DNA from: Myxococcota bacterium | Lineage (GTDB): Bacteria; Myxococcota_A; UBA9042; PHBI01; JAWLBL01 | Assembly (NCBI GenBank): GCA_041687695.1 | Contig: JAWLBL010000019.1 | Location: 32,001-96,000 of the forward strand | Direction: 5' to 3' | Length of the DNA stretch: 64,000 nt | Shown: positions 1 through 17,218 of the stretch, one piece after another | Position numbering within the stretch: the stretch's first letter is position 1 | Layout: each line of letters starts with the position of its first letter | Notes under the pieces: model-generated | What the model was told of the DNA's origin: nothing | Databases searched by the model: none | The model's input: only the letters and a program-made list of their open reading frames with translations | Translations under genes and position numbers: made by a program

Positions 1-876
1 GTGGCGCTCGTTGACGTTGATGAGCTCGTCGATGGCCTCGAGGCGGGTGGCGCCGTGGTCGCGGACGAGGGTGGTCAGGTAGGCGCGCAGGCGCTCGGGC
101 GAGTAGCGGCGCTGGGTCTTGGGGGCGCCGGGGTCGCGGCCCGGGTTCGAGCTGCAGTGCGTGCAGACGAAGGGGCAGCCGCGCGAGGTGACCAGCGGGA
201 GCGTGCGGCCGTCGATGGGGAAGGCCCAGGGGCCGCGGCCGAGGTTGCCGACGACGCGGGCCGAGAAGCGGTCGCGGGCGTCGAGGTCGACGAGATCCCA
301 GGCCGGGAAGGGCAGGGCGTCGAGGCTGGGCGGCGAGACGCCGCGGTGGGTGCCCTCGGGACGCTGGCCGCGGGACACCAGGGCGTCGAGCAGCGCGGGG
401 ACCGTGACCTCGGCCTCGTACTTCACCCAGGCGGCGGCCTCGGGGTAGCTGGCCAGGACGTCGGGGCCGTGGGCTTCGACGTAGTGCTGGCCCGACTGGT
501 AGCAGTCCGCCAGGAGGACCGGGGCGGCGGGGAAGGCGTCGGCCAGGCCGGCGAGCAGCTCGCCGAGGACGTCGTCGCGCGCGGGTGGGCGGTGGAAGGG
601 CGTGTAGGCCACCACGACCAGGTCGGGGGTCGGGCCGGCCGTGGCGGCGGCCAGCACCTCGGAGGTCGGGGCGCCGAGGTGGGCGCGTCCGTCCGGGCGC
701 CAGGCGAGGGTCGAGCCGGGCAGCGCGTAGGCGTCGACGAGCGTCACGGCGGCGCCGCGTTCTCGTAGCACCGACGCCACCTGCACGGCGCCGAGGTCCG
801 CCAGATATGGATAGTCGATGAAGTCCCGTGCTATCGTCACGGGCGGATGGATGATGATGACGCGCGGACCCGACAT
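1..876 (-). CDS. Cobalamin (B12)-binding radical SAM protein, 3' end runs off the window
   Basis: Not in the ORF track (no stop inside the window). Manual translation from ATG at 876: MSGPRVIIIHPPVTIARDFIDYPYLADLGAVQVASVLRERGAAVTLVDAY... (B12-binding-domain-like), then LDALPFPAWDLVD and TSRGCPFVCTHCS (CxxxCxxC at ~154-177). Confidence 0.85.
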   Translation of the reverse strand, partial: MSGPRVIIIHPPVTIARDFIDYPYLADLGAVQVASVLRERGAAVTLVDAYALPGSTLAWRPDGRAHLGAPTSEVLAAATAGPTPDLVVVAYTPFHRPPARDDVLGELLAGLADAFPAAPVLLADCYQSGQHYVEAHGPDVLASYPEAAAWVKYEAEVTVPALLDALVSRGQRPEGTHRGVSPPSLDALPFPAWDLVDLDARDRFSARVVGNLGRGPWAFPIDGRTLPLVTSRGCPFVCTHCSSNPGRDPGAPKTQRRYSPERLRAYLTTLVRDHGATRLEAIDELINVNERH

Positions 877-882
877 GAGGGC

Positions 883-912
883 AGCATAGACGGTCCGACG
901 CTGCGCGTCCAA
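883..912 (-). promoter_or_regulatory. Putative sigma70-type promoter (TTGGAC-N18-TATGCT) 6 nt upstream of the ATG at 876
   Basis: Hexamers read on the minus strand; no Shine-Dalgarno between the -10 and the ATG, consistent with a leaderless transcript. Confidence 0.45.
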
Positions 913-947
913 GGCGGGCGACCGCGGGACACGCGACGGGGGCGACG

Positions 948-2801
948 ATGACGGGTGTGGCGGCCACGAGGCCGACGGCGGAAGGCGGTCACGCCGTCCC
1001 GGTGATGGCGGAGACGCGGGCCGTCCACGAGGAGGCCGCGCACGAGCGCCGCAACTGGGTGCGGCTCACCTTCGACTGCAACAACCGGTGCATCTTCTGC
1101 CTGGACTCGGACTCGCTCGACGGCGACATCCGCGACCGCGAGGACATCCGGCGGCAGATCGTCGAGGGGCGCGACAAGGGGGCGACGCGCCTCATCCTGT
1201 CGGGCGGCGAGCCGACGATCCACCCGCGGTTCATCGAGTTCGTCCGCCTGGGCAAGCGGCTGGGCTACCGCAAGGTGCAGACCGTCACCAACGGACGGCT
1301 GTTCGCCTACCCCGAGTTCCTGCGCAAGGCGCTCGACGCGGGCCTCGACGAGATCACGTTCTCGCTGCACGGTCCCAACGCGCGCGTCCACGACGCGCTG
1401 GTCGGCGTCAAGGGCGCCTGGGAGCAGGAGGTCGAGGGCCTGCGCAACGCGCTGGCCGACGGACGTCCGGTCGTCAACATCGACATGGTCATCAACCGCG
1501 GCAACGTGCGGCACCTGCCCGAGATGATGCGGCTGTACACGCAGATGGGCGTGCGCGAGTTCGATCTGCTGCAGGTCGTCCCGTTCGGGCGCGCGTTCAC
1601 CGAGGGGCGCGAGACCCTGTTCTACGACCTCGAGGAGGCGCGGCCCTACCTGCTCGAGGCGTTCGCCTACGCGCGCAAGCCCGGGATGCACATCTGGCTC
1701 AACCGGTTCCCGCCGCAGCACCTCGAGGGCTTCGAGGACCTCATCCAGGACCCGTACAAGCTCAACGACGAGGTGCGGGGGCGCAAGGAGCAGTTCGAGC
1801 GGCTGCTCGACGCGGGCGTGCCGCTGGACTGCCGCGAGCCGGCGCGTTGCAAGCACTGCTACCTCGAGCCGCTGTGCGACACGCTGGACGAGGTCCGCGA
1901 GGTGGCGGCCGAGGCGCGCTTCGAGGTGCTGCGCGTCGACCCGACGTTCGAGGCGACGTTGCCGCCGGAGATCGGTGGGGATCCGGCCAGCGCGAAGTGG
2001 ATCGAGGCCCAGGAGCGCATGCAGGCCGAGGCGGCGGCGAGCGGCGAGGGCGAGGCGGGGCGGCGGTCGCGCATGGGGCTGCCCATCGTGACGGTGCGGC
2101 CGCCGGCGCCGGCGGTCAGCCTGCCCGAGCTCGCGGCGCGGGCCGGGGCGCGCGCGCTGTGGGTGGTGGCCGCCGATCTGGGGGCGGCGCTGGCCGAGGC
2201 CGAGCGGTTCCCCGGGCTCGCGGAGCTGGAGCTGGAGCTGGCGTCGTACGCGGGGCTGGCCGAGGCGCTCGGCGACGGCGACCGCCTGGGAGACCGGCGG
2301 CTGGTGCGGGCGCTGGCGGCCGACGCTGCCCAGGCGGCCGAGCTGCTGGCCGTCCCGGGGGCCTTCGAGGTCGCGCTGGCGCTGACCAAGGAGAGCGCCG
2401 CGTGGGTGTTGGGGCTCGAGGCGGCGCCGGCGCGGCTGGTGCTGCGACAGCCGACCTACGAGCGCGTCACCGAGGCGCTCGAGCGCGACGTCGAGCCGGC
2501 CTCGCTGTTCCCGCGGCTGCCGCCGGAGGTCCCGGTCGAGGGCGTGCCCCGGTGCATCTCGGGCCGCGCGCCGCGCCCGCGGCCGGCCGTGCTGGACGGG
2601 GCGATGACGGCGCCGTCGGGGCGTCTCGAGATCTTCCGGTACGCGCGGCGCTTCATCGCGTCGCGCTTCGTGAGCAAGTCGCTGCGCTGCCGCGGCTGCG
2701 CCTTCTTCGACGCCTGCGAGGGGGTGCACGTGAACTACGCGCGCGCGCACGGCTACGGCGTCCTGCAGCCGGTCCCGGCGACCGAAGGGGGCACGTCGTG
2801 A
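948..2801 (+). CDS. Radical SAM protein (large, two extra Cys clusters); paralog of 13074..14816
   Basis: CNNRCIFC, LSGGEPTIHP and QTVTNG motifs; central CREPARCKHCYLEPLC; C-terminal KSLRCRGCAFFDACEGVH. Alternative start ATG at 1005. Confidence 0.9.
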   Translation: MTGVAATRPTAEGGHAVPVMAETRAVHEEAAHERRNWVRLTFDCNNRCIFCLDSDSLDGDIRDREDIRRQIVEGRDKGATRLILSGGEPTIHPRFIEFVRLGKRLGYRKVQTVTNGRLFAYPEFLRKALDAGLDEITFSLHGPNARVHDALVGVKGAWEQEVEGLRNALADGRPVVNIDMVINRGNVRHLPEMMRLYTQMGVREFDLLQVVPFGRAFTEGRETLFYDLEEARPYLLEAFAYARKPGMHIWLNRFPPQHLEGFEDLIQDPYKLNDEVRGRKEQFERLLDAGVPLDCREPARCKHCYLEPLCDTLDEVREVAAEARFEVLRVDPTFEATLPPEIGGDPASAKWIEAQERMQAEAAASGEGEAGRRSRMGLPIVTVRPPAPAVSLPELAARAGARALWVVAADLGAALAEAERFPGLAELELELASYAGLAEALGDGDRLGDRRLVRALAADAAQAAELLAVPGAFEVALALTKESAAWVLGLEAAPARLVLRQPTYERVTEALERDVEPASLFPRLPPEVPVEGVPRCISGRAPRPRPAVLDGAMTAPSGRLEIFRYARRFIASRFVSKSLRCRGCAFFDACEGVHVNYARAHGYGVLQPVPATEGGTS

Positions 2802-3856
2802 CGACCGCCGAGGCCAGCGCCCTCGGGCGCGAAGAGGTCGTCCAGCGCATCCAGACCCGGCAGGAGCGCATCCACGTCGCCATCGGCCCGGTCTGCAACA
2901 ACAACTGCATCTTCTGCATGGAGGAGGACCGCGTCGCGCGCGAGGTCGTCAACGGCTCGATGACCCCCGAGCGCGTGCGCCGCATCCTCGAGGCGAGCGC
3001 CGGGTCCGAGGAGGTGTGCTTCACCTCGGGCGAGCCGACGATGGTCGCCGAGCTGCCGCGCTACGCCCGCTGGGCGCGGCGCCTCGGCTACCGGCGCGTC
3101 AGCGTGATGACCAACGGCCGGCGCCTGTCGCACGCGCCCTACGTCGAGCACCTCGTCAAGGCCGGCATCAACTTCTTCTATGTCTCGATCCACGGCCACA
3201 CGCAAAAGCTCCACAGCGGCCTCGTTCGCGAGCCGGCGGCCTTCGAGCAGACGGTCGCCGGGCTCGACAACGTCTCCGCCTACAAGCGCGAGGGCGTGAC
3301 CCTGCACACCTCGACCGTGGTCACGCGGCGCAACGCCCCCTACTTCGCCGAGATCTATCGGTTCTTGCGCTCGCACGGCGTCGATCAGGTGGTCTTCAAC
3401 GTCATGCAGGCCAACGGCCGGGCCCACACCTACTTCGAGCAGCTCTTCCCGAAGTACACCGACATCGCCGCCGGCTTCGCCGCGTTCCTGAAGGACGAGC
3501 CCGAGCAGCCCGCGCAGGCCTTCCTGGTCGACATCCCGCTGTGCACGACCACGAACCTGCCGGACTTCAACCGCGGCTACGTCGAGCGCTACCTGCACTA
3601 CGAGCCCAAGGGGTTCCAGCAGCTCGAGCTCGGCGAGCGCGACGCGCCGGCGCCGGACGACGACCTCGTCGCGGTGACGCGCGCCGACCTCGACCGCAGC
3701 GAGCGCCTCAAGCGCCCCGAGTGCGCGAGCTGCCGATACGAGCCCGCCTGCGAAGGGGTCTGGAAGAACTACCTCGCCCGGTACGGATGGGACGAGATGG
3801 TCCCGGTCCCGCACCCGGCCGCGCCCGACGACGCCGCGAGGGCCACGCCTACGTGA
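2798..3856 (+). CDS. Radical SAM protein, HxsC-like, with C-terminal CxxCx5CxG
   Basis: GTG start overlaps the upstream stop (GTGA). CNNNCIFC, TSGEPT, MTNGRR, DIPLC and CASCRYEPACEG motifs; 352 aa. The earlier part of the 1088..3856 ORF is off-frame shadow. Confidence 0.88.
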   Translation: MTTAEASALGREEVVQRIQTRQERIHVAIGPVCNNNCIFCMEEDRVAREVVNGSMTPERVRRILEASAGSEEVCFTSGEPTMVAELPRYARWARRLGYRRVSVMTNGRRLSHAPYVEHLVKAGINFFYVSIHGHTQKLHSGLVREPAAFEQTVAGLDNVSAYKREGVTLHTSTVVTRRNAPYFAEIYRFLRSHGVDQVVFNVMQANGRAHTYFEQLFPKYTDIAAGFAAFLKDEPEQPAQAFLVDIPLCTTTNLPDFNRGYVERYLHYEPKGFQQLELGERDAPAPDDDLVAVTRADLDRSERLKRPECASCRYEPACEGVWKNYLARYGWDEMVPVPHPAAPDDAARATPT

Positions 3857-5652
3857 CGACGTCGGCTCGCGAGCGAGCGCCTCGGGTCGCAAGCGAGGTG
3901 GCCGTCGTGGCCGTCGAGGGGCCGTGCAACGACCGCTGCGTCGTCTGTCCCGTGCCCGAGCCACGACGCGTGGCGCCCGCCCAACCGGCCGCCGTCGCGG
4001 CCAGCCTCGCGCGCGCGGTCGCCCAAGGGGCCGACTCGGTCGTGTTCGCGGGCGGCGAGCCGACCCTGCTGCCGCGCTTCGTGGAGCACGTGCGGGCCGC
4101 GCGTCAAGCGGGCCTGGCGGTCGGCGTCGTCACCAACGGGCGCATGTTCGCCTACGCGCGGCTCGCGCGGGCCGCCGCGCGCGCGGGCCTCGGCTCCGCG
4201 ACGGTGGCGGTCCACGGGCCCGACGCCGCGACCCACCAGGCCGTCTCCCGCTCCGAGGGCTTCGACCAGGCGCTCGAGGGGGCGCGCCACCTGGCCGCCT
4301 GCGGCGTCGAGGTGACGCTGCGGCTGACCCTGCTCGCGGCGTCGCTCGACCGACTCGCCGACCTGCCGGCGCTGCTCGATCGGACGGGCGCCGCCCGGCT
4401 GGCGCTCGAGCTGCCCGATGCGGTCGAGGAGGGGGTCGAAGTCGCGCGGCGCGACGCGGCCGAGGTGGCCGTCGCGGCGCTCGTCGACCGGTTCGCGCGG
4501 TCGAGGCTGTCGGGGCGGCTCGACGTCGCGGCGCTGCCTCCGTGCTGGACCGGCGGCGCCAGCGGCGGCGTCGCGCTCCGGCCAGGCGCGGTGTTCGCGG
4601 CCCCGTGCGCCGACTGCTCGCTCCGCAGCCGCTGCCCCGGGCTGCCTGCGGCGATGGTCGACGCGCTCGGAGACGCGGCGGTGGCCCCGTTCCGCGTGGT
4701 CCGCTCGAACTCCTTCAACCTCGTGCCCCGGCAGCGGCTGGACTGGCCGGCCGGCACGCCGTGCCCCTTGCTGGTCGGGGCGCCCGCGCCGCGCTCGAGC
4801 GCCGACCGCGCGATCCACCTGCGCTCGGACGGCGCGCTGGTTCGCCACGAGACGACGACCGGCGACTTCGTCGACGCCGAGCTGCGGCGGGTCCTGCGCG
4901 ACTCGGGCCAGCTCTACGTCGACGTCAGCGACAAGGACGCGCCCGACGACTTCGCCGCCGACCTGCGCAAGCTGGTCGTGGCCACCGAGTGCGACGAGTG
5001 CCCTCGCCAACGCCGCTGCGGCCGCGCGTGGCAGGTCGACCAGCGCGATGTCTTCGGCGCCGACGACGCCCTGGTCGCGCAACGCATCGCGACGCTGAGC
5101 GGCGACGTGCTGGACGTGGGCTGCGGGCATGGCCCCTACGGCGAGCTGCTGGCGCCCTTGGCGAGCGGCGGCGCGCTGCGCTACGTCGGCCTCGAGCCCG
5201 ACGAGGCCCGGGTCCGCGAGCTGCGGGCGCGGTGGCCCTGGGCGACCCTGATCGCGGCCACCGCCGAGGAGGCACGCTTCGCGGAGGCGTCGTTCGATCA
5301 CGTGCTGATCCTGAGGAGCTACAACCACCTCGCGGCGCCTCGCGCGGTGCTGGCCGCCGTCACGCGAGCCCTGAGGCCGGGCGGGACGCTGCTGGTCGTC
5401 GACAACGAGGCCTTCGGGTTGGTCCGGACCCGCGAGGCGGCGGCGCGGGCCGAGGCCGGGTCGGCCGAGCACGAGCACTACCGCAACGACGGCGCCGCCG
5501 AGGCGCTCGAGGCGATGCGCGGGCTGCCGCTGACGCTGCTCGCGCGCGCCGACGTGGGGCCGGCGACCAGCAACCAGTGGCTGCTCCATCTGCGCAAGCA
5601 CGATGGCGACGCGGCCGCGCCTTCCTTGCTCCGGGGCGAGTCGGTGGTGTGA
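3853..5652 (+). CDS. Radical SAM - class I SAM-dependent methyltransferase fusion protein
   Basis: GTGA overlap with the upstream gene. CNDRCVVC, GGEPT, TNGR; CADCSLRSRCPG and CDECPRQRRCG; C-terminal VLDVGCGHG, FDHVL and LRPGGTLLV; 599 aa. Confidence 0.85.
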   Translation: MTTSARERAPRVASEVAVVAVEGPCNDRCVVCPVPEPRRVAPAQPAAVAASLARAVAQGADSVVFAGGEPTLLPRFVEHVRAARQAGLAVGVVTNGRMFAYARLARAAARAGLGSATVAVHGPDAATHQAVSRSEGFDQALEGARHLAACGVEVTLRLTLLAASLDRLADLPALLDRTGAARLALELPDAVEEGVEVARRDAAEVAVAALVDRFARSRLSGRLDVAALPPCWTGGASGGVALRPGAVFAAPCADCSLRSRCPGLPAAMVDALGDAAVAPFRVVRSNSFNLVPRQRLDWPAGTPCPLLVGAPAPRSSADRAIHLRSDGALVRHETTTGDFVDAELRRVLRDSGQLYVDVSDKDAPDDFAADLRKLVVATECDECPRQRRCGRAWQVDQRDVFGADDALVAQRIATLSGDVLDVGCGHGPYGELLAPLASGGALRYVGLEPDEARVRELRARWPWATLIAATAEEARFAEASFDHVLILRSYNHLAAPRAVLAAVTRALRPGGTLLVVDNEAFGLVRTREAAARAEAGSAEHEHYRNDGAAEALEAMRGLPLTLLARADVGPATSNQWLLHLRKHDGDAAAPSLLRGESVV

Positions 5653-5673
5653 AATGGGCGCGACGGAGGGGCT

Positions 5674-6924
5674 ATGACGGTCGGCGGCAAGGTGGTGTGG
5701 CGAATCGGGCTCGCGCTCGGGCTGATGGGGACCGCCGCGGTCGCGGACCGCGCCACGGCGTCGCCGCCGCCGCCGACGGGGTGGGTGGCGCCCGAGCGGC
5801 CGACGGGGGCTCGCCCGATCCCCGAGCCGTTGCCGCCGGGCAGCCCGACGAGCACGCCCTCGCCGACGGGGTGGGTGCCGCCCGAGCGGCCCACGACGGG
5901 GCCCGACGGCGAGCCGATCGAGGACGGGTTCTACTGCGAGTCGGCCGAGCGCGCGCGGCTCAAGGAGGCCGAGGGACGGCTGCGGGACGCCCAGGAGTAC
6001 TTCGATCGCGGCACCTTGCTGATGATCACGCAGGCCGAAGCGATCGCCCGCCGCTACTGGTACGAGCAGATTCGGCTCTGGTCATACAACCTTCCTGTCC
6101 CCGAGCGCGACCTGCCGCCGCTCGTGCCGAGCTCGGATCCGAACTGCCACGAGTTCGTCACGCCGCCGCTCGAGGTCTGCGACGACGTGCCGGGTGACGA
6201 CAAGGAGGCCTGCCAGATCTGGTGGTCCGCGCGCGCGGCGCTGCAGGGCGCGTCGACGGCCTGCGACGCGCTCAAGCCCGAGCTGCAGGTCGCCTGCCGG
6301 GCGCTGTCGGCCCGGCGAGCCAGGGTCTGCGAGGAGCACGACGACGCGAGGTGCCGCGAGTACATGGCGGCGGCCGCGCGGCCGATCCAGCCCGAGGACG
6401 TGGCCATTTTGGTCTCGGACGTCGAGGCGCCGTTCCGAAAGCTGCTGCTGCCGTCGCTGTTGAAGGGCACCAAGATCTGTGGCGACCGGAAGGCCAGCGC
6501 CGACCCCATCGCCTGGCGACGCTGCATGGCGGTCGTGAGTGGGGAGGAGCGCTGGTGCGAGGTCGAGCTGCGCGACGCCATCGTCGGCGAGCCGATCCGC
6601 GAGGAGCCGACCGTCCGAACCCTGCGGCTCGGGTTGCGCCTGGAGACGGCGACCACCAACGAGGCGATCCTGGGGGCCGAACGTGGCGGCCAGGGGCCGG
6701 AGTTCGGTGGGACCGTCCTGGCCGCCGTGCGATCGGGCGTGATGCAGGCCTGCGTCGTAGAGGTCGTGGTGAAGCTGGGCGATCGGGTCGTGGCGAGCTT
6801 CGACCGCGCCCTCCTGGCTCAGGCGGCGACCGAGCCGCTCATCCTGCCCATCTCGCAGCCCATCGACATCTGGAAGACCACGGTCGAGGTGCGGCCGATC
6901 TGTGTGCCGACGTACCAGTTCTGA
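5674..6924 (+). CDS. Exported Cys-containing hypothetical protein with a duplicated PTGWVxPERPT motif
   Basis: GGAGGGG SD before the ATG; hydrophobic signal-like N-terminus; Pro-rich region; 21 bp downstream of the rSAM-MTase gene. Confidence 0.7.
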   Translation: MTVGGKVVWRIGLALGLMGTAAVADRATASPPPPTGWVAPERPTGARPIPEPLPPGSPTSTPSPTGWVPPERPTTGPDGEPIEDGFYCESAERARLKEAEGRLRDAQEYFDRGTLLMITQAEAIARRYWYEQIRLWSYNLPVPERDLPPLVPSSDPNCHEFVTPPLEVCDDVPGDDKEACQIWWSARAALQGASTACDALKPELQVACRALSARRARVCEEHDDARCREYMAAAARPIQPEDVAILVSDVEAPFRKLLLPSLLKGTKICGDRKASADPIAWRRCMAVVSGEERWCEVELRDAIVGEPIREEPTVRTLRLGLRLETATTNEAILGAERGGQGPEFGGTVLAAVRSGVMQACVVEVVVKLGDRVVASFDRALLAQAATEPLILPISQPIDIWKTTVEVRPICVPTYQF

Positions 6925-6984
6925 GGCGGGCCAGGAGGGCGGGGCCGAGGTGACGCCCGGCGGGACGGTCCGCGGGCGGGCGGG

Positions 6985-7893
6985 TCAGCCGTCCCGCCCA
7001 GTCAGCCGACGGAAGGCCTCGTAGTAGCGATCGGCGGTGCGCTGGGCGACCTCTGGCGGCAGCTCGGGGCCCGGCGGCTGCTTGTCCCAGCCGCTGTCGA
7101 GCAGCCAGTCGCGCACGATCTGCTTGTCGAAGCTGGGCTGCGATCGGCCCGGGGCCCACTCGGCGGCGTCCCAGTAGCGCGACGAGTCCGGCGTCAGCGC
7201 CTCGTCGATGAAGATGAGGTCGTCGCCCACGAGGCCGAACTCGAACTTGGTGTCGGCCAGCAGCAGCCCGCGCTCGGCGGCGCGCTCGGCGGCGAAGCGG
7301 TACAGGCGCAAGCTGGCGTCGCGGACGGCCTCGGCCCGGGCGCCGCCGATGATCGCCGCCGCCTCGTCGAAGCTGATGGGCTCGTCGTGCTGGCCCTTGG
7401 GCGCCTTGGTCGAGGGCGTGAAGATGGGCTCCGGGAGGCGGTCCGACTCGCGCAGGCCGGGGGGCAGCGCCACGCCCGAGACGCGCCCGGTCCGCTGGTA
7501 CTCGGACCAGCCGCCGCCGGCCAGGTAGCCGCGCACGACGGCCTCGATGCGGAGCGGCTCGGCCTTGCGGGTGACGACCGCGCGGCCCTCGAGCAGGCGC
7601 GCCGTCTCGGCGTCCCGAACGACGTCGGCCACCGAGGTCGACAGCAGGTGGTTGGGCAACAGCTGGGCGGTCTGCTCGAACCAGAAGTTCGACAGCTGCG
7701 TCAGGATCCAGCCCTTGCCGGGGATGGCCGTCGGCAACACGACGTCGAACGCGCTCAGGCGGTCGGTCGCGACGATGAGCAGGCGATCGCCGAGGTCGTA
7801 GACGTCGCGGACCTTGCCGCGATAGCCCAGGACGAGGCCCGGGATGCTGGACTCGGTGATCGGCGCCAGCGCGGAGGCGGGGATGGGGCTCAT
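6985..7893 (-). CDS. purC: Phosphoribosylaminoimidazole-succinocarboxamide (SAICAR) synthase
   Basis: YRGKVRDVY, ATDRLSAFD, DTKFEFG, DEALTPDSSRYW and FDKQIVRDWL motifs. Confidence 0.97.
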   Translation of the reverse strand: MSPIPASALAPITESSIPGLVLGYRGKVRDVYDLGDRLLIVATDRLSAFDVVLPTAIPGKGWILTQLSNFWFEQTAQLLPNHLLSTSVADVVRDAETARLLEGRAVVTRKAEPLRIEAVVRGYLAGGGWSEYQRTGRVSGVALPPGLRESDRLPEPIFTPSTKAPKGQHDEPISFDEAAAIIGGARAEAVRDASLRLYRFAAERAAERGLLLADTKFEFGLVGDDLIFIDEALTPDSSRYWDAAEWAPGRSQPSFDKQIVRDWLLDSGWDKQPPGPELPPEVAQRTADRYYEAFRRLTGRDG

Positions 7894-7912
7894 TCGGGGG
7901 CTCCGGACGGGG

Positions 7913-8512: not shown

Positions 8513-8616
8513 CGGCGGCTCTCCCGGCGTGGCGCGGGCGTGAGCCGCATCCATCGGCGTCGACCGTCATAGCATCGGGGCGACGGGAACGCACGGTCCA
8601 CGCGTCCGCGCACGGC

Positions 8617-9480
8617 TCAGTCCAGATCCCCCAGCCCGATGGCCTTGGCGAGGCGGCTGTCGAGGAGGCGATCGGGCAGCACCTTGCGGGCCCAGAGCAG
8701 GGCGGCCGTCCCGCGTGAGACGGCGTAGCGGGCCTTGGGACGCGGCGTCGTCAGGGCGCGGTGGATGACCTCGGCGACGTCCTGCGGGGTGGCGGCCCGG
8801 CGCATGAGCTCCTGGAAGGTCTCGGTCAGCAGCGTGGCGACGTTCTCGTAGGCGCTCCCCGGCGCGTGGTCGAACAGATCGGCGGCCGACAGGGCCGGCC
8901 GGGCGGCGGTGACGAGGCCGGCGCGGACGAGCCCGGGCTCGATGAGGACGACGTCGACGCCGAAGACCCCCAGCTCGAGCCGCAGCGCGTCGCACAGGCC
9001 CTCGAGGGCGAACTGGCTGGCGCTGTAGGCGCCCGACAGCGGCATGGCGATCCGGCCGGCGGCGCTCGAGATGCACAGGATGACGCCGCGGCGCTGCGCG
9101 CGAAACACGGGCGTCATCGCCTGGATGAGGCGCAGGGGGCCGAAGAAGTTGGCGTCGAAGAGATCGCGCACGGTGGCGTGGGGGGTCTCCTCGATGGCGC
9201 CGAAGCGGCCCATGCCGCCCGCGTGGACGAGGGTGTCGACGTGGCCGAAGAGCGTGCGTGCGCGTTCGATGGCGGCGCGGCAGGCCGCGTCGCTCGACAG
9301 ATCGGTCGCGTAGACCTCGACCAGGCCGCCGCGGGCGGTCTCGCGGGGCAGATCGGAGAGGCCGTCGAGGCTGGGCGCGCACGCGAGGACCTGCATGCCG
9401 CGCTCGGCGAGCAGCAGGGCGGTGGCGCGGCCCACGCCGCGGTGGGCGTCGGTGAGCAGGACGGCGCGGCGCGGCGGCAT
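8617..9480 (-). CDS. Short-chain dehydrogenase/reductase (SDR) fold protein with altered catalytic motifs
   Basis: Starts MPPRRAVLLTDAHRGVGRATA; has NFFG, ISSAAG, YSASQFALEG and IEPG. Start overlaps the upstream stop (TGATG). Confidence 0.85.
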   Translation of the reverse strand: MPPRRAVLLTDAHRGVGRATALLLAERGMQVLACAPSLDGLSDLPRETARGGLVEVYATDLSSDAACRAAIERARTLFGHVDTLVHAGGMGRFGAIEETPHATVRDLFDANFFGPLRLIQAMTPVFRAQRRGVILCISSAAGRIAMPLSGAYSASQFALEGLCDALRLELGVFGVDVVLIEPGLVRAGLVTAARPALSAADLFDHAPGSAYENVATLLTETFQELMRRAATPQDVAEVIHRALTTPRPKARYAVSRGTAALLWARKVLPDRLLDSRLAKAIGLGDLD

Positions 9481-11465
9481 CAGGGGCTCTCGTCGCCGAG
9501 CGCGGCCTGCGCCTTCTGGAGCTGGGTCGCGAGCGTGGAGCTGGCGGAGACCGTCTCCTCGTAGTGGTCGCGATCGGGGCCGCTGAGCAGGCTGACCTTC
9601 AGGTTGAAGTCGTTCTCGGGGATGATGTAGCTGAGGTAGTCGCCCGCGTTGCCGATGACCAGCCGATACGGCGTGTCGGGGAGCAGCTGAACCAGCGGCG
9701 GCGTGCTCGCAGGGTCGGGCGCGTGATGATAGGGCACGTCGTGCATGCGCAGGCAGTCGCAGTCGCCGACGGCGAGCTCGAGGCGGCAGGCCTCGTAGTC
9801 GACGGCGTCGCACTCGGGCGGGTGCTGCGGGAAGTAGACCGAGTCGCGGCCCTCGGTCGTGCCGCGCTGCGTCGGGTCGGCGGACTCGGCCTGCCAGCGC
9901 GGGTCGTCGGTGGGCAGCCCGTGGAAGACCTCGGGCAGCAGCTCGCCGGGCGCGGTCATCACCGAGAGCGGCCCCAGGCGTAGGCGCCAGGTGCGGGTGT
10001 CCAGGCAGCCCAGATCGAACGGGTCGGTCGGGTCGTGGCCGGGGCACGCCTCGGGGTCCTGGATGAGCTGCTCGACCTCGCCGTCGATGAGCCCCGAGAG
10101 CGCGACGAAGCCCCAGGCCATGTTGTCGACGTGGACGCGCATGGGGGCGACGCGCACCTCGAACGGCTCGAGCGTGACCGGCTCGGCGCCCGCGAGGGCC
10201 GACAGGGCCGCGTCGGCGACGTGGACGCCCGCGCTGAAGGTGATCTCCCAGGTGTCGCTGGGCGCCCAGGTGGGCTCGGGCTCTCCGCCGGCGTCGGTGG
10301 TCATGACCCACTGGCCGTCCTCGTCGACCAGCGGCGTCGGGGCGCCGAGCATCGACTGCATGCCGCCCAGGCACTCGGGGACGAAGACGGCCGTGCCGCC
10401 CAGGGCGTCCTCGAGCTGCTCGCGGGCGACGCCGACCCAGTCGGCCGAGATGAGGCGGTTGGACGAGCCCCACACCTCGGGGTGCCCCGAGTAGTTGAGC
10501 AGGGTGGCGATCCCCTCGTGGGTCTCGGGGTCGCGGGCGTGCATCGCGAAGACCCGCGTCGACGCGACGACCGGATCCCGACCGTCGTGGGTCAGGCCGT
10601 GGACGCGCGCCTTGGGGTTGGTGCCGCCGAAGTGGGCGCCGTTGAACCAGGGCGAGACCTCGGCCAGGTCGCGCATCCCCATGACCACCTCGGCGGGACG
10701 CACGGCGGCGGCGGCCGCCCGGACCGAGGCGACCATCGCCTGGACCACGCGGGCCTGGTAGGCCGGGTCGAAGCCCGGCTCGAGCTGGCCGTTGTCGAGG
10801 TCGACCAGCCCCCAGATGCCGATGGTGTCGGGCCCCTGGTGGACGTGGCTGGTCGAGGCGATGAAGCGGTCGGGGTCCATCCCGTCCTCGGCGGCGAGCA
10901 CGGCCGCGGCCTCGTCGATGCGGAACTGCAGCAGGCCCACCAGATCGAGTCCGGTCAGCACCAGGTACTCGCCGTTGCGGACGACGACCATCGTGCGCAC
11001 CGAGAGCGGGTCGTGCACGCCGGCGGCGGCCCGCTTGGGTCCGAAGCCGCCGATCCAGACCGCGTCGAAGCGGCCGTTGCCGTTGACGTCGTCGAACGGC
11101 TCGGCGCAGCCGGGCTTTTCGGCCTTGGGGTCGTCGATGCAGCCGTCGAACTCGGCGTCGCCGTCGAGGTCCGAGAACGTCTCGAGGACCTCGGGCGTGA
11201 TGTCGATCGAGGCCACGCCGACCCAGGTCACGCCGTCGACGCCCATGGGCAACCCAAGCGGCGTGGGTGACGGGGCCACGTCGCCGCCCGAGTCGGTCGT
11301 GACGACCTCGGCGCCGTCCTCGGCGGTGTCGGTGGCCGGCGACGCGTCGTCGTGGGCCACCGCGTCGGAGACGTCGCCACCCTGAGAGGGTGGGGGCGCC
11401 GGATCGCTACCGCATGCGGCGGCGATGACGAGCAGCGTGGCGAAGAGGGGCGAAGGGCGGCGCAA
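9480..11465 (-). CDS. Lipoprotein, neutral/alkaline ceramidase-like hydrolase
   Basis: Lipobox AAAC; GVHDPLSVR, STSHVHQGPD, NYSGHPE, ISADWVG, PGELLPE and HYEETVS motifs resemble the ceramidase N-terminal domain family. Confidence 0.7.
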   Translation of the reverse strand: MRRPSPLFATLLVIAAACGSDPAPPPSQGGDVSDAVAHDDASPATDTAEDGAEVVTTDSGGDVAPSPTPLGLPMGVDGVTWVGVASIDITPEVLETFSDLDGDAEFDGCIDDPKAEKPGCAEPFDDVNGNGRFDAVWIGGFGPKRAAAGVHDPLSVRTMVVVRNGEYLVLTGLDLVGLLQFRIDEAAAVLAAEDGMDPDRFIASTSHVHQGPDTIGIWGLVDLDNGQLEPGFDPAYQARVVQAMVASVRAAAAAVRPAEVVMGMRDLAEVSPWFNGAHFGGTNPKARVHGLTHDGRDPVVASTRVFAMHARDPETHEGIATLLNYSGHPEVWGSSNRLISADWVGVAREQLEDALGGTAVFVPECLGGMQSMLGAPTPLVDEDGQWVMTTDAGGEPEPTWAPSDTWEITFSAGVHVADAALSALAGAEPVTLEPFEVRVAPMRVHVDNMAWGFVALSGLIDGEVEQLIQDPEACPGHDPTDPFDLGCLDTRTWRLRLGPLSVMTAPGELLPEVFHGLPTDDPRWQAESADPTQRGTTEGRDSVYFPQHPPECDAVDYEACRLELAVGDCDCLRMHDVPYHHAPDPASTPPLVQLLPDTPYRLVIGNAGDYLSYIIPENDFNLKVSLLSGPDRDHYEETVSASSTLATQLQKAQAALGDESP

Positions 11466-11547: not shown

Positions 11548-12060
11548 TCAGCGCCGGAAGTAGTCGACGTGATCGATGGGGTCGAACTGGGCGAGGCGCT
11601 CCTGGCGGCCGAGCAGGGGCTGGCCACCGGCGAGGCGCTCCTCGGCCCCGGCGAGCTGCCGGGCGACCTGACGGACGAGGGCGACCTCGTCGTCGGGCGT
11701 GCGCCGCTGGCCGTCGCCGCCGTCGTTCATCAGGAACAGGTCGACGCGACCGGTGCTGGCGATGGCGCGCGAGTTCGGCTCGGCCGCGCAGATGCCGATG
11801 TTCGCCTGACGGCCGCTGGCCGCGTGGCGCGCCACGACGCGCAGGGCCCCCGCCTCGACGCCCGTGACCTCTTCGACGGCCCAGCCGTCCTCGAGATCGA
11901 GCCCACCCGGCAGGGCAGCTCGCACTTCGGCGGTCAGCGCGGCGCCGGGCGCAGCGGCGCGCGCCGCGCTGGGCAGGTTGGCCAGCACGAGGCCGGCGGC
12001 GGACGCGGCGATGAAGGTTCGCCGGTCGAGCCCGTTACTCTGGTCCTTTTGGCCGGACAT
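11548..12060 (-). CDS. Small Tat-exported hypothetical protein
   Basis: Twin-arginine signal DRRTFI + hydrophobic stretch + ARA; GGGAGGG SD upstream; divergent from the second rSAM operon. Confidence 0.8.
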   Translation of the reverse strand: MSGQKDQSNGLDRRTFIAASAAGLVLANLPSAARAAAPGAALTAEVRAALPGGLDLEDGWAVEEVTGVEAGALRVVARHAASGRQANIGICAAEPNSRAIASTGRVDLFLMNDGGDGQRRTPDDEVALVRQVARQLAGAEERLAGGQPLLGRQERLAQFDPIDHVDYFRR

Positions 12061-12131
12061 CACGGTTCCCTCCCCCCACTCGGTGCGGTCGTCTCTATTG
12101 CCTGTCGGACGGGTGCCTGTGTCAGGTCAGG

Positions 12132-12160
12132 AGCGTGCCAGTCGACCAGAGTCCTGTCAA
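12132..12160 (-). promoter_or_regulatory. Putative sigma70-type promoter for the Tat protein gene (TTGACA-N17-CACGCT)
   Basis: Perfect -35 hexamer on the minus strand at 12160-12155, 17-nt spacer, weak -10. Confidence 0.4.
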
Positions 12161-12267
12161 CGCGACCAACCGTCGACGTGGCGGCCTTCTGTATCCGTGG
12201 GCGTAACGTGTCGAGGCGGGCGGGAGGGCGCGGGGGCGACGGCTCGGGTGGGGGGATGGTGCGCAAG

Positions 12268-12297
12268 TTGCCTCACGGCCTCCCGTTTTGCTAGGGT
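12268..12297 (+). promoter_or_regulatory. Putative promoter of the second rSAM operon (TTGCCT-N18-TAGGGT, extended -10 TG)
   Basis: Hexamers 34 nt upstream of the proposed TTG start at 12332. Confidence 0.4.
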
Positions 12298-12331
12298 AGC
12301 GCCGGGGCGACGGACAGGCCAGGGAGCCCAG

Positions 12332-13090
12332 TTGGCGCAGGGGCTGACAGAGGCGCCGATCGTCAGGAGCGGATACGGGTGCAACAGCGCCTGCCGCTTC
12401 TGTGATCAGGGCGATTGGCGGACCACCCGTGGGGACCGCGCGGCCGACGAGGTCGCCGACGCGGCCGTTCGCGCGGGGCAGGGCGGCGGCGTGGTCGTCT
12501 TCTCGGGCGGCGAGGTGACGATGCGGCCCGAGCTCGCCGAGTGGGTCAGGCTCGCCCGAGGCGCCGGCGCCAAGCGCGTCCTCGTCCAGACCAACGGCCG
12601 CATGCTCGCCTACCCGGGGGTCGCGCAGCAGCTCCGCGACGCCGGCGTCGACGTGTTCGCCGTGGCGCTGCACGGCCACGTGGCCGAGCTGCACGACTGG
12701 CTGACCCGCACGGAGGGCAGCTTCGAGCAGGCTGTCAAGGGCGTGCGGCGGGCGCGGCAGGCCGGCGCGTCGATCATCGTCAACACGGTCGTCACGCGGC
12801 CGGGCTATCGGCACCTGGGCGAGATGGCGGCGCTCCTGTTCGGCGCGCTGGGCGCCTCGGGCTGGCGCCTCATCTGGCCGCGTCCCGAGGGCGAGCTGGC
12901 CGGCGGCCCCGCCGGCCTCACCCCCGAGCCCACGCTGGTGGCGCCGCACGTGGCGCGCGCCCGCGCCATCGCCGAGCGCGCCGGCAAGCGCCTGTGGCTC
13001 GAGCTGCCGGAGGCCGCGCTGGCCCCGGCGGCCTCTCCGGGCCCCGCACCCGAACCGGCCGAGGAGTCCTCCGATGTCCGTGTCGCCTGA
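12332..13090 (+). CDS. Short radical SAM protein (core domain only)
   Basis: TTG start after GGGAG; CNSACRFC, SGGEVT, QTNGRMLAY and ALHGH motifs; 252 aa; no C-terminal Cys cluster. Confidence 0.85.
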   Translation: MAQGLTEAPIVRSGYGCNSACRFCDQGDWRTTRGDRAADEVADAAVRAGQGGGVVVFSGGEVTMRPELAEWVRLARGAGAKRVLVQTNGRMLAYPGVAQQLRDAGVDVFAVALHGHVAELHDWLTRTEGSFEQAVKGVRRARQAGASIIVNTVVTRPGYRHLGEMAALLFGALGASGWRLIWPRPEGELAGGPAGLTPEPTLVAPHVARARAIAERAGKRLWLELPEAALAPAASPGPAPEPAEESSDVRVA

Positions 13091-14816
13091 GACGAGCGCC
13101 CCGCGCCCCGGACCGCGCGCGGTCATCGACGAGGAGATGCAGGCCGAGCTGGCCCGCGCCCTCGAGGTCAAGGACCTGACCAAGGAGGCCGCCGTCAAGC
13201 ACGCGCGGCACTGGGTCCGCCTGACGCGCCTGTGCAACCAGCGCTGCATCTTCTGCCTCGACTCGTGGAACCACAACGGGACCTACGTCGATACGCAGCA
13301 GCTGATGCAGTACATCGATCTGGGCAAGGCGCTGGGCCGCGAGCGGCTCATCCTGTCGGGCGGCGAGCCGACCATCCACCCGGACTACGTCAAGCTGCTC
13401 AAGCACGGCAAGAAGGCCGGCTACGACTGGATCCAGACCGTCACCAACGGGATGATGTTCGCCTACCCCGAGTTCGCGCGCCGCTGCATCCAGGCGGGGC
13501 TGAACGAGGTGACCATCTCGATCCACGGCCACACGCCCAAGCTGCAGGACCGCCTGGTCGGCGTCCCCGGCGCCTTCGACAAGGCCATCGAGGGCATCAA
13601 GAACATCCAGGCCCTGTCGGGCGGGCGGACGGTCGTCAACATCGACGTCGTCATCAACAAGCAGAACGTGCCGCACCTGCGCGAGATCATCGATCTGTTC
13701 CGCGGGATGGGCATCCACGAGTTCGATCTGCTGTACATCGTCCCCTTCGGGCGCGGGTTCTCCGAGTACCGGTCGCAGCTGTACTTCGACCTGGGCGAGC
13801 ACTACGACGATCTCCAGCGGGCGTTCGAGGTCTCGAAGGAGCCGGGGGTCTACATCTGGACCAACCGGCTGCCGGTCGAATACCTCGAGGGCTACGAGCA
13901 CCTCATCCAGGACCCGCACAAGCTGCACAGCGAGGTCCAGGGCGGGTTGCACAACTTCCAGGGCTACCTGGAGATGGGCACGCCGCCGGACTGTCACGGC
14001 GAGCGGTGCGGCCACTGCTTCCTGAAGGGCCTGTGCCACGATCAGATGTTCGAGTACCGGCAGCGGCTCGAGGCGCGGGCGTTCGACCGGGTGCGGGTCG
14101 ATCTCGACGTGCCGGTGCCCAGCACGCGGGCGGCCATCGCCCTGGACACGCAGCGCCCGCGCGTCGTGCACGTGCAGGGGGCCGACGCCGCGGCGATTCG
14201 CGAGTGGATCGAGGGGCATCCGTACCGTGACGAGGCGTACGCGCCCGAGCTGGTGGCCGAGCCGCGCGACGAGGCGACCAGCGCCGAGCTGATGGACGAC
14301 GCGGGCCTGGCGCGGGTGGTCGCCAACACGCCGGCGGCGCTCGAGCGCTTGCTGGCCGCGGCGCCCGAGGGCCGGGGGCCGGCGGTCGAGGCGCGGCTGA
14401 CCGCCGAGACGGCGCGCTGGCTGCAGGACAACGAGCCCCTGGCGCGCCCCTGGATCGAGGCCGACCGCCTGGTCGGGCACCTGCCGAACTTCGAGTACGT
14501 CTCGGGCGTGCGCGACAACGGCGTCGGCGGCGACGAGCTGCGCGCCCTGGCGGCGATGGGGCTGCGGCTGATGAACGTCGCGCCGTGCATCGGCGGGGCC
14601 AAGGCCGAGCCCGGCGCCCACCACGCCCTGTCGCGCGACATGCTGGACGACAAGGGGCGGCTGTCGGTCACCCCGTACGTGCAGCGCTACATCGAGGGCG
14701 AGTACTACAAGAAGAGCCTGCGCTGCCGCGGCTGCGCGCTGACCGAGACGTGCCGCGGGATGCACATCAACTTCCTGCGCGCCCACGGGTTCGCCCAGCT
14801 CCAGCCGGTCGGGTGA
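13074..14816 (+). CDS. Radical SAM protein (large, two extra Cys clusters); paralog of 948..2801
   Basis: CNQRCIFC, LSGGEPTIHP; central CHGERCGHCFLKGLC; C-terminal KSLRCRGCALTETCRGMH; GAGGAG SD. Confidence 0.92.
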   Translation: MSVSPETSAPRPGPRAVIDEEMQAELARALEVKDLTKEAAVKHARHWVRLTRLCNQRCIFCLDSWNHNGTYVDTQQLMQYIDLGKALGRERLILSGGEPTIHPDYVKLLKHGKKAGYDWIQTVTNGMMFAYPEFARRCIQAGLNEVTISIHGHTPKLQDRLVGVPGAFDKAIEGIKNIQALSGGRTVVNIDVVINKQNVPHLREIIDLFRGMGIHEFDLLYIVPFGRGFSEYRSQLYFDLGEHYDDLQRAFEVSKEPGVYIWTNRLPVEYLEGYEHLIQDPHKLHSEVQGGLHNFQGYLEMGTPPDCHGERCGHCFLKGLCHDQMFEYRQRLEARAFDRVRVDLDVPVPSTRAAIALDTQRPRVVHVQGADAAAIREWIEGHPYRDEAYAPELVAEPRDEATSAELMDDAGLARVVANTPAALERLLAAAPEGRGPAVEARLTAETARWLQDNEPLARPWIEADRLVGHLPNFEYVSGVRDNGVGGDELRALAAMGLRLMNVAPCIGGAKAEPGAHHALSRDMLDDKGRLSVTPYVQRYIEGEYYKKSLRCRGCALTETCRGMHINFLRAHGFAQLQPVG

Positions 14817-14822
14817 CCGCGG

Positions 14823-16013
14823 ATGGCGAACATCGGCTACATCCAGGTCGTCCGGCACTGCAACCACTTCTGCGGGTTCTGCTCGAACCCCACCACGCCC
14901 TACGTCCACACCTTCGAGACGATGAAGGTGCTGGTCGACGACTTCGTCCGGCGCGGCTACTTCGGCGTCATCCTGACCGGCGGCGAGCCGACCCTGCACC
15001 CCGAGCTGCCGCGCATCGCCGGCTACGCGCGCGACCAGGGGCTGCACGTGCGCATGATCACCAACGGGTGGCGGCTGGCGGACCCCGACTTCGCCCGCGA
15101 GCTGGCCGAGGCGGGCCTGCAGCACGTGCACGTGTCGGTCTACTCGGTGCGACCCGAGGTCGAGGCGCAGCTGCGAGGGCTGCCGAAGACGCTCGACAAG
15201 GCCTTCGCGGCCGTCGACAACGCCTACCGCTTCGGGCTGACCGTCGACGTCAACTGCGTCATCAATAGGCTCAACGCCGACCACCTCGACGAGAACATCC
15301 GCTACTGGATGACCCACCACCCGCAGGTCCGCCACTTCGTGTGGAACAACCTGGACCCGTCGATGGGGCGCGCCGAGGTCAACCAGGACCAGTACACGCC
15401 GCGGCTGGCCGACTTCGAGGCGTCGCTGTATCGCGCGCTGCGCCTGCTGCACGGGTCGGGGCGCACCTTCCGCGTCGAGCGCGTGCCGCTGTGTTACATG
15501 GCCGAGTTCGCCTGGGCCAGCACCGAGACGCGCAAGATCGTCAAGGGCGAAGAGCGCATCGTGCACTTCCTGGACGCCAAGCAGACGGTGCGCCAGACCG
15601 ACTGGGGGCACCACTACGACAGCGCCTGCGACGTGTGCTCGGTGCGCGGCATCTGCGGCGGCCTGTACGACAAGGGCGGGGCCTACGACCCGGCCGAGCT
15701 GGCGCCGCTGTTCGTGTCGCCCGACGCCATCGTCGAGCACATCATCACCGACCCGAGCGACCCCAGCTATCGGCTGCGGACGCTGGCCGAGTGGAAGGCC
15801 GACTTCGAGGCGCGGCGGCAGGCGCAGGTGAAGGCCGCCGCCGAGGCCGAGGCGCGGCGCAGCGTCGCGGGGCTGTCGGTCGGGGTCGTGACCGAGGAGG
15901 GGCAGCGCCTGTTCGAGAAGAAGCGGAAGGCCGAGGCCAAGATGGCGGCGCGGCTGGGCGTCGCGCAGGAGCGCCAGGATCGGCCGGACGCGGCGGGCGA
16001 GGGGGCGCCGTGA
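14823..16013 (+). CDS. Radical SAM protein, HxsC-like, with CxxCx5CxG and a charged helical tail
   Basis: CNHFCGFC, TGGEPTLHP, ITNG, RVPLC and CDVCSVRGICGG motifs. Confidence 0.9.
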   Translation: MANIGYIQVVRHCNHFCGFCSNPTTPYVHTFETMKVLVDDFVRRGYFGVILTGGEPTLHPELPRIAGYARDQGLHVRMITNGWRLADPDFARELAEAGLQHVHVSVYSVRPEVEAQLRGLPKTLDKAFAAVDNAYRFGLTVDVNCVINRLNADHLDENIRYWMTHHPQVRHFVWNNLDPSMGRAEVNQDQYTPRLADFEASLYRALRLLHGSGRTFRVERVPLCYMAEFAWASTETRKIVKGEERIVHFLDAKQTVRQTDWGHHYDSACDVCSVRGICGGLYDKGGAYDPAELAPLFVSPDAIVEHIITDPSDPSYRLRTLAEWKADFEARRQAQVKAAAEAEARRSVAGLSVGVVTEEGQRLFEKKRKAEAKMAARLGVAQERQDRPDAAGEGAP

Positions 16014-17218
16014 GCGCGCTGGGGGCCGGGCTGCTGATGCCCGACGGCGGCGGAGACGGGGCGACGCGCCGGCTGGTCTTGCGCCTGGTCAAGAAGCTGG
16101 CTCGGGATCTGATGACGCTGCCGCCCGCGGCGGTGCCGGCCGAGCTGGGCGGGGCCTTCGCCCAGGCGGCGCAGCTGGTGCGGCGGCTGGGCGAGGCGAA
16201 CGCGCGCGGGCTGTTCGCGGTGCTGCGGCGGCCGCAGGTGCACGTGCTGCTGACGTGCGCGTGGCGGGCCATCGAGGACGGCGACGTGCTCGACGCGCGG
16301 GCGCGGACGACGGCGCTGCTGGTGCAGCTGGGGTTCGAACTGGCGCTGGAGGGGGCGCTGCCCGAGGGCGCGGCGCTGCGGGTGCCCGTGCCGGCGCCCG
16401 ACGGGGTGCTGCGGTCGCCGAGCCGGCGGCTCGAGGTGGCGCTGCCCCGGCACGCGGGCCTGCGCTTCGAAAACGGCTTCGTCACGCTGGTGGGGCCCGG
16501 GACGCGGGTGCCGCTGGCGGGGCCGCCCAGCGAGCGGTTCCCCGAGGTGGCCCCCGGCGCGGTGTTGGCGCTGGTGGACAACAACCCGATCAGCGACTTC
16601 GAGGCGCACCCGGACAAGCAGGGCAACGCGCTGTCGCTGGGTGACGCGCCGGCGTCGGCCTGGACGGCGTCCATCGCCGAGGGGCTGGCCCTGGTGGGGC
16701 GGTGGCTGCCCGATCTGCGCGAGGAGATGGGGCTCGTCCTGCAGCAGCTGGTCCCGGTCGGCACCGACGACGAGAAGCACCTGTCGGCCAGCTACCGAGA
16801 GGCCATCGGCACCGTCTACCTGACGCTGCACCCGCGCCTGATGACCATGACCGAGGCGCTGATCCACGAGTATCAGCACAACAAGGTCAACATGCTGTTC
16901 CACGTGGACCCGGTGCTGCACAACGCCTACTGGCCGCTGTACACGTCGCCGGTGCGGCCGGACCCGCGGCCGCTGCATGGGGTGCTGCTGGCGGCGCACG
17001 CGTTCCTCCCTGTGGCCGAGCTGTATCGGCGCATGATGGAGGCGGGCGTCCCCGAGGCGACGCGGCCCGATTTCGTGGCGCGGGCGCGCCAGATCGTGCA
17101 GAAGAACGCGAGCGCGATGGCGACGCTCGAGGCGCACGCCGAGCCGACCGACGCCGGCCGCGTGCTGCTGGCCGAGATGACCGAGATGAACCGGAGGCAC
17201 CTCGCGTGGATGCCCTGA
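16010..17218 (+). CDS. HEXXH-motif peptide-modification enzyme (aKG-HExxH beta-hydroxylase-like)
   Basis: GTGA overlap with the upstream rSAM. EALIHEYQHNK followed by YTSPVRPDPRPLHGVLLAAHAF, the typical signature of the rSAM-associated HEXXH family. Confidence 0.88.
   Translation: MSALGAGLLMPDGGGDGATRRLVLRLVKKLARDLMTLPPAAVPAELGGAFAQAAQLVRRLGEANARGLFAVLRRPQVHVLLTCAWRAIEDGDVLDARARTTALLVQLGFELALEGALPEGAALRVPVPAPDGVLRSPSRRLEVALPRHAGLRFENGFVTLVGPGTRVPLAGPPSERFPEVAPGAVLALVDNNPISDFEAHPDKQGNALSLGDAPASAWTASIAEGLALVGRWLPDLREEMGLVLQQLVPVGTDDEKHLSASYREAIGTVYLTLHPRLMTMTEALIHEYQHNKVNMLFHVDPVLHNAYWPLYTSPVRPDPRPLHGVLLAAHAFLPVAELYRRMMEAGVPEATRPDFVARARQIVQKNASAMATLEAHAEPTDAGRVLLAEMTEMNRRHLAWMP

Follow-up and report, generated by a model that had tools for sequence, protein, structure and literature searches.

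Why should a single myxobacterial locus hold seven radical S-adenosylmethionine (rSAM) enzymes and an HExxH enzyme within 17 kb? The question arises from a 64,000-nucleotide stretch of the genome of a Myxococcota bacterium (assembly GCA_041687695.1, 7.97 Mb, 99% complete), here called the window, which corresponds to C19:32001-96000 (contig JAWLBL010000019.1); coordinates given without a contig are those of the window. The original prediction, made from the letters of the window, proposed an undescribed, much-expanded HxsC-like pathway acting on a peptide and related to His-Xaa-Ser (HXS) clusters. We think it probable that the locus is the principal one of an HxsA4-type HXS maturation system with dispersed genes. 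The system is real and conserved: in the source genome a precursor, HxsB, HxsD, an HxsD-like protein, HxsC-like rSAMs, a HExxH protein and a partner carrying a twin-arginine translocation (Tat) signal are present together, and across the phylum HxsA4 and HxsB are found together with the HxsC-like set.

The candidate substrate was reached by extending the contig leftward, as the original prediction had advised, which revealed an HxsA4 precursor gene (C19:27799-28137, + strand) 3.9 kb left of the window start, followed on the same strand by two further rSAM genes, and the second domain of the rSAM gene cut by the window edge. The precursor has 112 amino acids (aa), with a 57-aa leader and 18 His-Xaa-Ser triplets before a terminal Trp, its core reading HCS-HAS-(HGS)16-W, and it is the sole open reading frame (ORF) of the source genome with at least three tandem HxS triplets. 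Scanned without its first Met, it scored 128.7 bits against NF038313 (HxsA4, cut-off 55), and its seven NCBIfam matches include HxsA4, HxsA3 and HxsA2, canonical HxsA not being among them. Pfam returned a collagen-repeat match only, with no peptidoglycan-binding domain, and the leader, whose best 12-residue hydropathy is 0.82, lacks a hydrophobic signal. Across families the core opens with HCSH[AG]S and continues in HGS repeats. Some relatives have very long precursors, with about 58 HxS triplets in L105 (G036:C16) and about 49 in L081 (G091:C93), one precursor branch ends in HGQW rather than HGSW, and several genomes carry the precursor in two or more copies.

The seven CxxxCxxC genes of the original prediction all exist and all exceed the PF04055 cut-off, and the cluster is larger than was proposed, with nine rSAM genes (R1 to R9) and ten rSAM domains once the 4.2 kb left of window position 1 are included. 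R1 (C19:28173-29582, +, 469 aa) and R2 (C19:29579-30487, +, 302 aa) are HxsC-like and precede R3 (C19:30495-32876, - strand, 793 aa, two rSAM domains), whose 5' part occupies window positions 1..876. The window continues on the + strand with the HxsC-like R4 (948..2801, 617 aa, two extra Cys clusters), which is paralogous to R8 (49.5% over 307 aa), the radical SAM protein HxsC4 (R5, 2798..3856, 352 aa; NF038332 545.3 bits, cut-off 500) and R6 (3853..5652, 599 aa), a fusion of an HxsC-like rSAM with a class I methyltransferase domain in which PF04055 and PF08241 are both above cut-off. A second + strand operon comprises the short HxsC-like R7 (12332..13090, 252 aa), which has three Cys only and no auxiliary cluster, R8 (13074..14816, 580 aa) and R9 (14823..16013, 396 aa), both HxsC-like, and the HExxH gene. 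The predicted GTGA overlaps at 2798, 3853 and 16010 are present in the sequence. The genes at 5674-11465 (purC, an SDR gene, a ceramidase-like protein) were rejected as cluster members; four of them were in the reference protein set by whose matches alone relatives' loci were mapped, and are absent from those loci (the SDR gene stood outside the set). The rSAM motif density is not a matter of chance, since 417 of 430 genome tiles of the same size contain no strict motif pair, positions 1-17218 contain six, and the two tiles covering this locus are the only ones with at least four. GC content, at 67-79% along the window and 70-77% within the cluster, gives no sign of an island.

HxsC or HxsC4 is the top NCBIfam match of all nine rSAM genes, R5 being the only one above a cut-off, and the best TIGR03977 (HxsC) score of about 90 bits falls short of the cut-off of 267.9 for canonical HxsC. 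Among the plasmid matches listed for R9, canonical HxsC dominates, at about 24% identity. The PxC...CxxC-x5-C-(x)-G signature ascribed to five of the enzymes was confirmed at 948, 2798, 3853, 13074 and 14823 and is absent from 12332; that of the gene cut at position 1 lies outside the window, in the second, HxsC-like domain of R3. The auxiliary CxxC-x5-C is common to canonical HxsC (3/3; PxC in 2/3), corresponding to C342/C345 in the Enterobacter protein, and the signature occurs in just one of the 27 other rSAM domains of the source genome. A shorter four-Cys motif is found in eight of the nine genes, and none of the nine rSAMs matched the SPASM Pfam domain at E<=0.01. The first rSAM domain of R3 groups with B12-class rSAMs, apart from the HxsC-like set in the rSAM core tree; R3 gave no match to the B12-binding PF02310, for which three of five double-rSAM proteins of relatives gave matches below cut-off, and B12 methylase is at best a tentative label. 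The proposed expanded HxsC-like pathway on a peptide is supported by these top matches, by the precursor beside the cluster and by HxsB, HxsD and HxsD-like in the genome. Not all of the rSAM paralogues need act on the peptide.

The remaining parts of the system are dispersed. HxsD (61719..62279, - strand, start probably near 62240; TIGR03976 72 bits, cut-off 50, the sole match in the genome) and HxsD-like (61474..61722, - strand; NF038315 63.5 bits, cut-off 41) lie 44 kb off in the window, HxsD standing 65 kb from the precursor on C19, and HxsB is on another contig (C1:78877-80280; TIGR03978 531.9 bits, cut-off 370). Several relatives (G022:C89, G027:C111, G019:C82 and others) carry a second, divergent HxsB-like gene that scores below cut-off (156-237 bits); in three it adjoins an HxsB above cut-off. 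The gene at 16010..17218 (+, 402 aa) encodes HEYQH and SPVRPDPRP, as predicted for the second operon, scores 92.6 bits against TIGR04267 (cut-off 40), the only such match in the source genome, and aligns with the ChlH structure 8s5f (E 2.3e-6) over the HExxH and PxRxDxRP motifs; its product is a predicted member of the alpha-ketoglutarate-dependent HExxH (aKG-HExxH) peptide beta-hydroxylase family. The next gene (17215..18612, +, start uncertain) encodes a Cys-rich secreted or lipoprotein-like protein with weak PPC and acidic double-disulfide matches below cut-off; it follows the HExxH gene in five of six close-relative loci reaching far enough, and its membership in the cluster is uncertain.

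HxsC-like matches at E<=1e-15 number 12 in the source genome, some on other contigs. A second cluster, C12:76835-85452, encodes a pair of multi-domain HxsC-like rSAMs together with a divergent rSAM-like protein that has a terminal Tat-family domain; this cluster probably belongs to the same system, because in relatives its homologues adjoin the Tat gene. Other HxsC-like rSAM genes are scattered at C55:314-1621, with a Tat-family-like domain at its end, C50:1873-2898, C6:187250-188248, C19:161835-163721 and C58:8330-10366.

Co-occurrence in other genomes was followed in two overlapping samples, 41 relatives including the source genome and 91 phylum genomes at least 90% complete. Among the 41, HxsA4 was above cut-off in 26, HxsB in 32, HExxH in 23, HxsC4 in 3 and HxsC in 0, with some misses possibly due to assembly gaps and several repeats broken by N-runs; HxsC4, above cut-off in just 3/41, is therefore not the defining enzyme of the subtype. 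Of the 91, 36 have HxsB and 33 have HxsA4 (E<=1e-11; 31 of them above cut-off), every HxsA4 genome also having HxsB, and HxsB stands at most 1 kb from HxsA4 in 15 of the 33. HxsC-like matches (E<=1e-15) range from 2 to 17 (median 8) in the HxsB genomes, and in the 55 genomes without HxsB are 0 in 46, 1 in 8 and 2 in 1. The counts refer to matches within a set of no more than 23 scored candidates and should not be read as copy numbers; of 14 control genomes, 3 were also positive at this threshold. Presence follows families (for example 7/7, 6/6 and 4/4 vs 0/10 and 0/5). The original prediction had named absence of co-occurrence, or membership in cofactor or lipid rSAM families, as outcomes that would speak against it; the parts co-occur across the phylum and none of the nine rSAM genes passes the cut-off of such a family in NCBIfam.

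The locus is a member of the subtype that NCBIfam names through HxsA4 (NF038313), HxsC4 (NF038332) and HxsD-like (NF038315), all three models being passed; these models name single proteins, and the remaining paralogues and the Tat protein have none. The system is thus not wholly undescribed, since NCBIfam names three of its proteins; no paper on the HxsA4/HxsC4 subtype was found in a search of largely open-access literature. Its maturation logic would be that of canonical HXS (HxsD-HxsB-HxsC-HxsA; TIGR03976-03979), as judged from the sequences: HxsB and HxsD are above cut-off, the substrate is a His-Xaa-Ser peptide, and the second rSAM type carries the same CxxC-x5-C auxiliary motif. Unlike the canonical system, however, it has 18 neutral HGS-type repeats with neither a peptidoglycan-binding domain nor a hydrophobic signal, many divergent HxsC-like paralogues in place of a single HxsC, an additional HxsD-like protein, HExxH protein, methyltransferase and Tat-signal protein, and dispersed genes instead of an hxsD-B-C-A operon. 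Because HxsC, HxsA architecture and operon order fail, it is not a member of canonical HXS. In E. coli, HxsA is neither processed at its N-terminus nor exported in the normal way unless HxsB, HxsC and HxsD are present, HxsC binds HxsD, a +8 Da (+C/-4H) change of HxsA maps to SHRSS, and HXS blocks phage DNA entry (PMC13128918). By arithmetic, +C/-4H fits one added carbon plus oxidative cross-links. The main text of that study contains no mention of myxo-, HxsA4 or HxsC4, and its supplements may list myxobacterial systems (PMC13128918).

Two other groups of RiPPs (peptides made by the ribosome and modified after translation) offer partial parallels. ChlBH, PflC, PosC and BpmH combine an rSAM cyclophane with aKG-HExxH chemistry, and the HExxH enzyme here aligns with ChlH as noted above; their differences are that the HExxH protein here stands alone, the rSAMs are of HxsB/HxsC type (the nine scanned being without the SPASM Pfam domain) and the substrate is a long repeat. 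The aromatic-Xaa-Xaa spacing of the HxsA4 core resembles three-residue cyclophane motifs. ChlH-type enzymes add beta-hydroxyl groups to His and Asp of a cyclophane that an rSAM enzyme has already formed (PMC12636437), and in TvgA/TvgB one rSAM modification is repeated over a short-repeat core (PMC9062424), as we propose here, although TvgB is a single rSAM enzyme of a different family acting on a Val-containing motif.

From these analogies we infer that several enzymes together cross-link, hydroxylate and methylate the His-Gly-Ser repeats. HxsD and HxsD-like would act as scaffolds that bring the HxsC-like enzymes to the leader of the precursor, in the manner of HxsC and HxsD in E. coli; HxsB and the HxsC-like enzymes would then introduce radical cross-links and one-carbon additions in the repeats, the most likely link joining a His ring to the Ser two residues on and recurring along the core. 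The HExxH enzyme would subsequently beta-hydroxylate, methylation would come from the R6 methyltransferase and possibly also from the first rSAM domain of R3, and the single Cys and terminal Trp of the core may be special sites. Some paralogues, such as R7 with no auxiliary cluster, may be non-catalytic subunits, and the last step would be leader removal and export of the product. That HxsA4 is the substrate of the core machinery appears highly likely; that most of the rSAMs in the window have it, or a group joined to it, as their substrate is favoured with less assurance.

How such a product might leave the cell brings in the Tat-signal protein (11548..12063, - strand, about 170 aa, RRTFI motif), which diverges from the second operon, belongs to an unnamed family and matched nothing in Pfam or NCBIfam. 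Its gene lies divergently upstream of the R8 operon in all seven loci found with R8, in which HExxH comes next in six of the six that extend and R7 is present in six of seven, and the order Tat protein-HxsD-HxsB-HxsA4 recurs in 9 of 20 loci (one with HxsD-like between), a set selected around HxsA4 or HxsB. The family profile matches 20 of the 91 genomes, all HxsB-positive, or 19 after discounting a weak match in G026 (E 1.8e-6). HExxH is found in 17 of these 19, in none of the 17 HxsB genomes without the partner, and in one genome without HxsB. At E<=0.001 the family comprises 877 clusters at 50% identity, and 136 of 150 stand-alone members keep the twin-arginine motif; TatC is encoded in the source genome. 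In two natural fusions a signal-less Tat-family domain sits between HxsD-like and HxsD domains, and one of them (P0156) runs on into an HxsC-like rSAM and a ferredoxin. Distant copies at the C-terminus of two other source-genome rSAMs were supported by hhalign (95.9%, shuffles <=4.1%), partly circularly because the test group was chosen from matches of the deep hidden Markov model (HMM), whose genome-wide E values were 0.18 and 0.39, the shallow HMM having missed them; assignment of the N-terminal extension of R1 to the family was unsupported (hhalign 0.1%). In L088:12483-14804 (G026), from a lineage without a stand-alone gene, a membrane protein upstream of hxsD has an N-terminal domain weakly resembling the family (E 5.6e-4). 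The predicted structure is a beta-meander with helices (predicted local distance difference test score 83); a fold search with the first model found no PDB match at E<=0.001, that with the better model gave VIA at best (Z 6.4, root-mean-square deviation 7.2, 108 aligned), below the level that goes beyond a common arrangement, and ESM Atlas matches reached at most 0.77, all unnamed. Operon and fusion evidence mark the protein as a predicted core part of one branch of the system.

The precursor leaders divide along the same line. In 29 genomes with the partner the 12-residue hydropathy maximum of the precursor is at most 1.29, and in 20 of 21 without it at least 1.37, the 21st having a true Tat signal; two G026 rows were dropped, one being a wrong-frame match and the other a leader with a broken frame, and the leader anchor is imperfect in some rows. 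That Tat-bearing precursor is L083:10013-10525 (G043; TIGR01409 17.3, cut-off 16.7), which stands beside a long-branch HxsB. On a quick HxsB tree of 62 rows the partner label changes once (Shimodaira-Hasegawa-like approximate likelihood ratio test 93), and no independent gains or losses were found on it. As this one event also carries HExxH, the leader pattern suggests, without showing, that the partner replaces the signal peptide of the precursor. A FLxxE[ED]G motif, absent from the source genome, is present in leaders of 20 of the 21 no-partner and 5 of the 29 partner genomes; we take it to be reminiscent of a Flp-type prepilin leader, and ten leaders gave no pilin family match.

Several observations weigh against this HxsA4-type maturation reading. 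At least ten enzyme domains face about four kinds of site, the number of HxsC-like matches varies between genomes over the range given above with an almost invariant core, R9 lies beside R8 in just one of seven loci, and the rSAM core tree leaves monophyly of the HxsC-like set unsettled (four changes, open forks). HExxH and the Tat partner are not universal, since neither was found in 17 HxsB genomes, and the phylum genomes are not independent samples because presence runs by family. The nearest solved structures to HxsC4 are BlsE and the glycerol dialkyl glycerol tetraether (GDGT) synthase, non-peptide enzymes, and the best PDB match of the N-terminal half of R3 is AprD4. These structures, the excess and variation in enzyme number and the scattering of paralogues over several contigs would also be expected if only HxsB and one or two HxsC-like enzymes touched the peptide, the others building or tailoring a separate small molecule (sugar, nucleoside or lipid), attached or alongside; the PDB matches, however, span the shared rSAM core only, far below family cut-offs, and several paralogues directly adjoin HxsA4, so that we regard this alternative as rather improbable. 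For the enzyme excess, a multi-subunit complex with inactive members and a separate attached moiety are both possible. That the rSAMs might serve cofactor or lipid biosynthesis and have nothing to do with a peptide, the precursor being a bystander, is very improbable: matches to MoaA, NirJ/Ahb, PqqE and Tes models do exist, but all score below about 90 bits against cut-offs of at least 131, HxsC or HxsC4 ranks above them for all nine genes, and the HxsC-like set co-occurs tightly with HxsA4 and HxsB.

An HxsA4-type maturation system may nevertheless serve different ends. It could be a plain HXS anti-phage system of myxobacteria, matured HxsA4 blocking phage DNA entry in the periplasm, for which speak the homologous HxsB, HxsD and HxS repeats, the one relative whose precursor has a true Tat signal, and the stop to DNA entry described in the main text on E. 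coli HXS (PMC13128918). HxsA4 here, though, is without a peptidoglycan-binding domain and basic repeats, and canonical HxsC is above cut-off in 0/91 genomes. The genes lie scattered between housekeeping genes, their GC is that of the genome average, and their presence follows families, a distribution unlike that of typical mobile defence islands. We judge a plain anti-phage system unlikely, as we do a role of the exported product as a phage-entry barrier or in metal binding, a structural or surface role being slightly less likely again. The Tat-signal protein, in turn, has close to an even chance of being a maturation adaptor, or a periplasmic immunity or binding protein acting on product already exported, rather than an escort. 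Signal-less copies in rSAM fusions and at rSAM C-termini indicate that the domain can work in the cytoplasm, and its agreement with leader type amounts to a single split of the HxsB tree and co-varies with HExxH; against an adaptor stand the twin-arginine motif kept by most stand-alone members, the lack of a hydrophobic stretch in precursors where the partner is present, and TatC in the genome. Escort of HxsA4 out of the cell by this protein is a tentative proposal. The fullest version of the HxsA4-type maturation reading, which we advance as speculation, is that some 40% of the phylum as sampled produces a poly(His-Gly-Ser) peptide with dense cross-links, hydroxyl groups and methyl groups through a multi-subunit machine of at least eight rSAM paralogues, and that in the branch with signal-less precursors an unnamed, twin-arginine-bearing, peptide-binding domain hitchhikes the matured peptide through Tat, to form a conserved envelope barrier or metal-binding layer.

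Other features of the window were recorded beside the cluster. Directly before hxsD-like, positions 55338-61292 (+) code for a protein of 1984 aa; a 108-bp repeat occurs there about 30 times, and the protein passes NF047638 (MtsC-type thrombospondin repeat) by repeat score. An ORF of 3855 aa lies at 35661-47228 (-). A Cys-rich 505-aa protein (18625-20142, -) has 174-bp tandem repeats, a lipoprotein-like start and no NCBIfam family at E<=1e-6, and a MalT-like ATPase/tetratricopeptide-repeat regulator of 1025 aa (21197-24274, +; NF003420 below cut-off) is encoded 4 kb from the cluster. A phage match for the HxsA4 precursor was looked for and none was found, and PADLOC gave only weak matches, to viperin-type, PDC-M51A and methyltransferase models.

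All HXS experiments that we found were done on the enterobacterial system of four genes, in which the +8 Da modification has no assigned structure; since HxsA4 is short and almost pure (HGS)n, it would be a far easier target for mass spectrometry. What is new here is the full parts list, which the source genome supplies in near-complete form for the HxsA4 system, the phylum-wide link of HxsA4 and HxsB to the HxsC-like expansion, and the operon and fusion evidence for the Tat protein. The Tat-signal gene is the basis of an unnamed family associated with the system and offers a direct test case for escorted export of a modified peptide. If most of the paralogues are indeed active, a common group of myxobacteria would hold a large pool of radical chemistry directed at one peptide.

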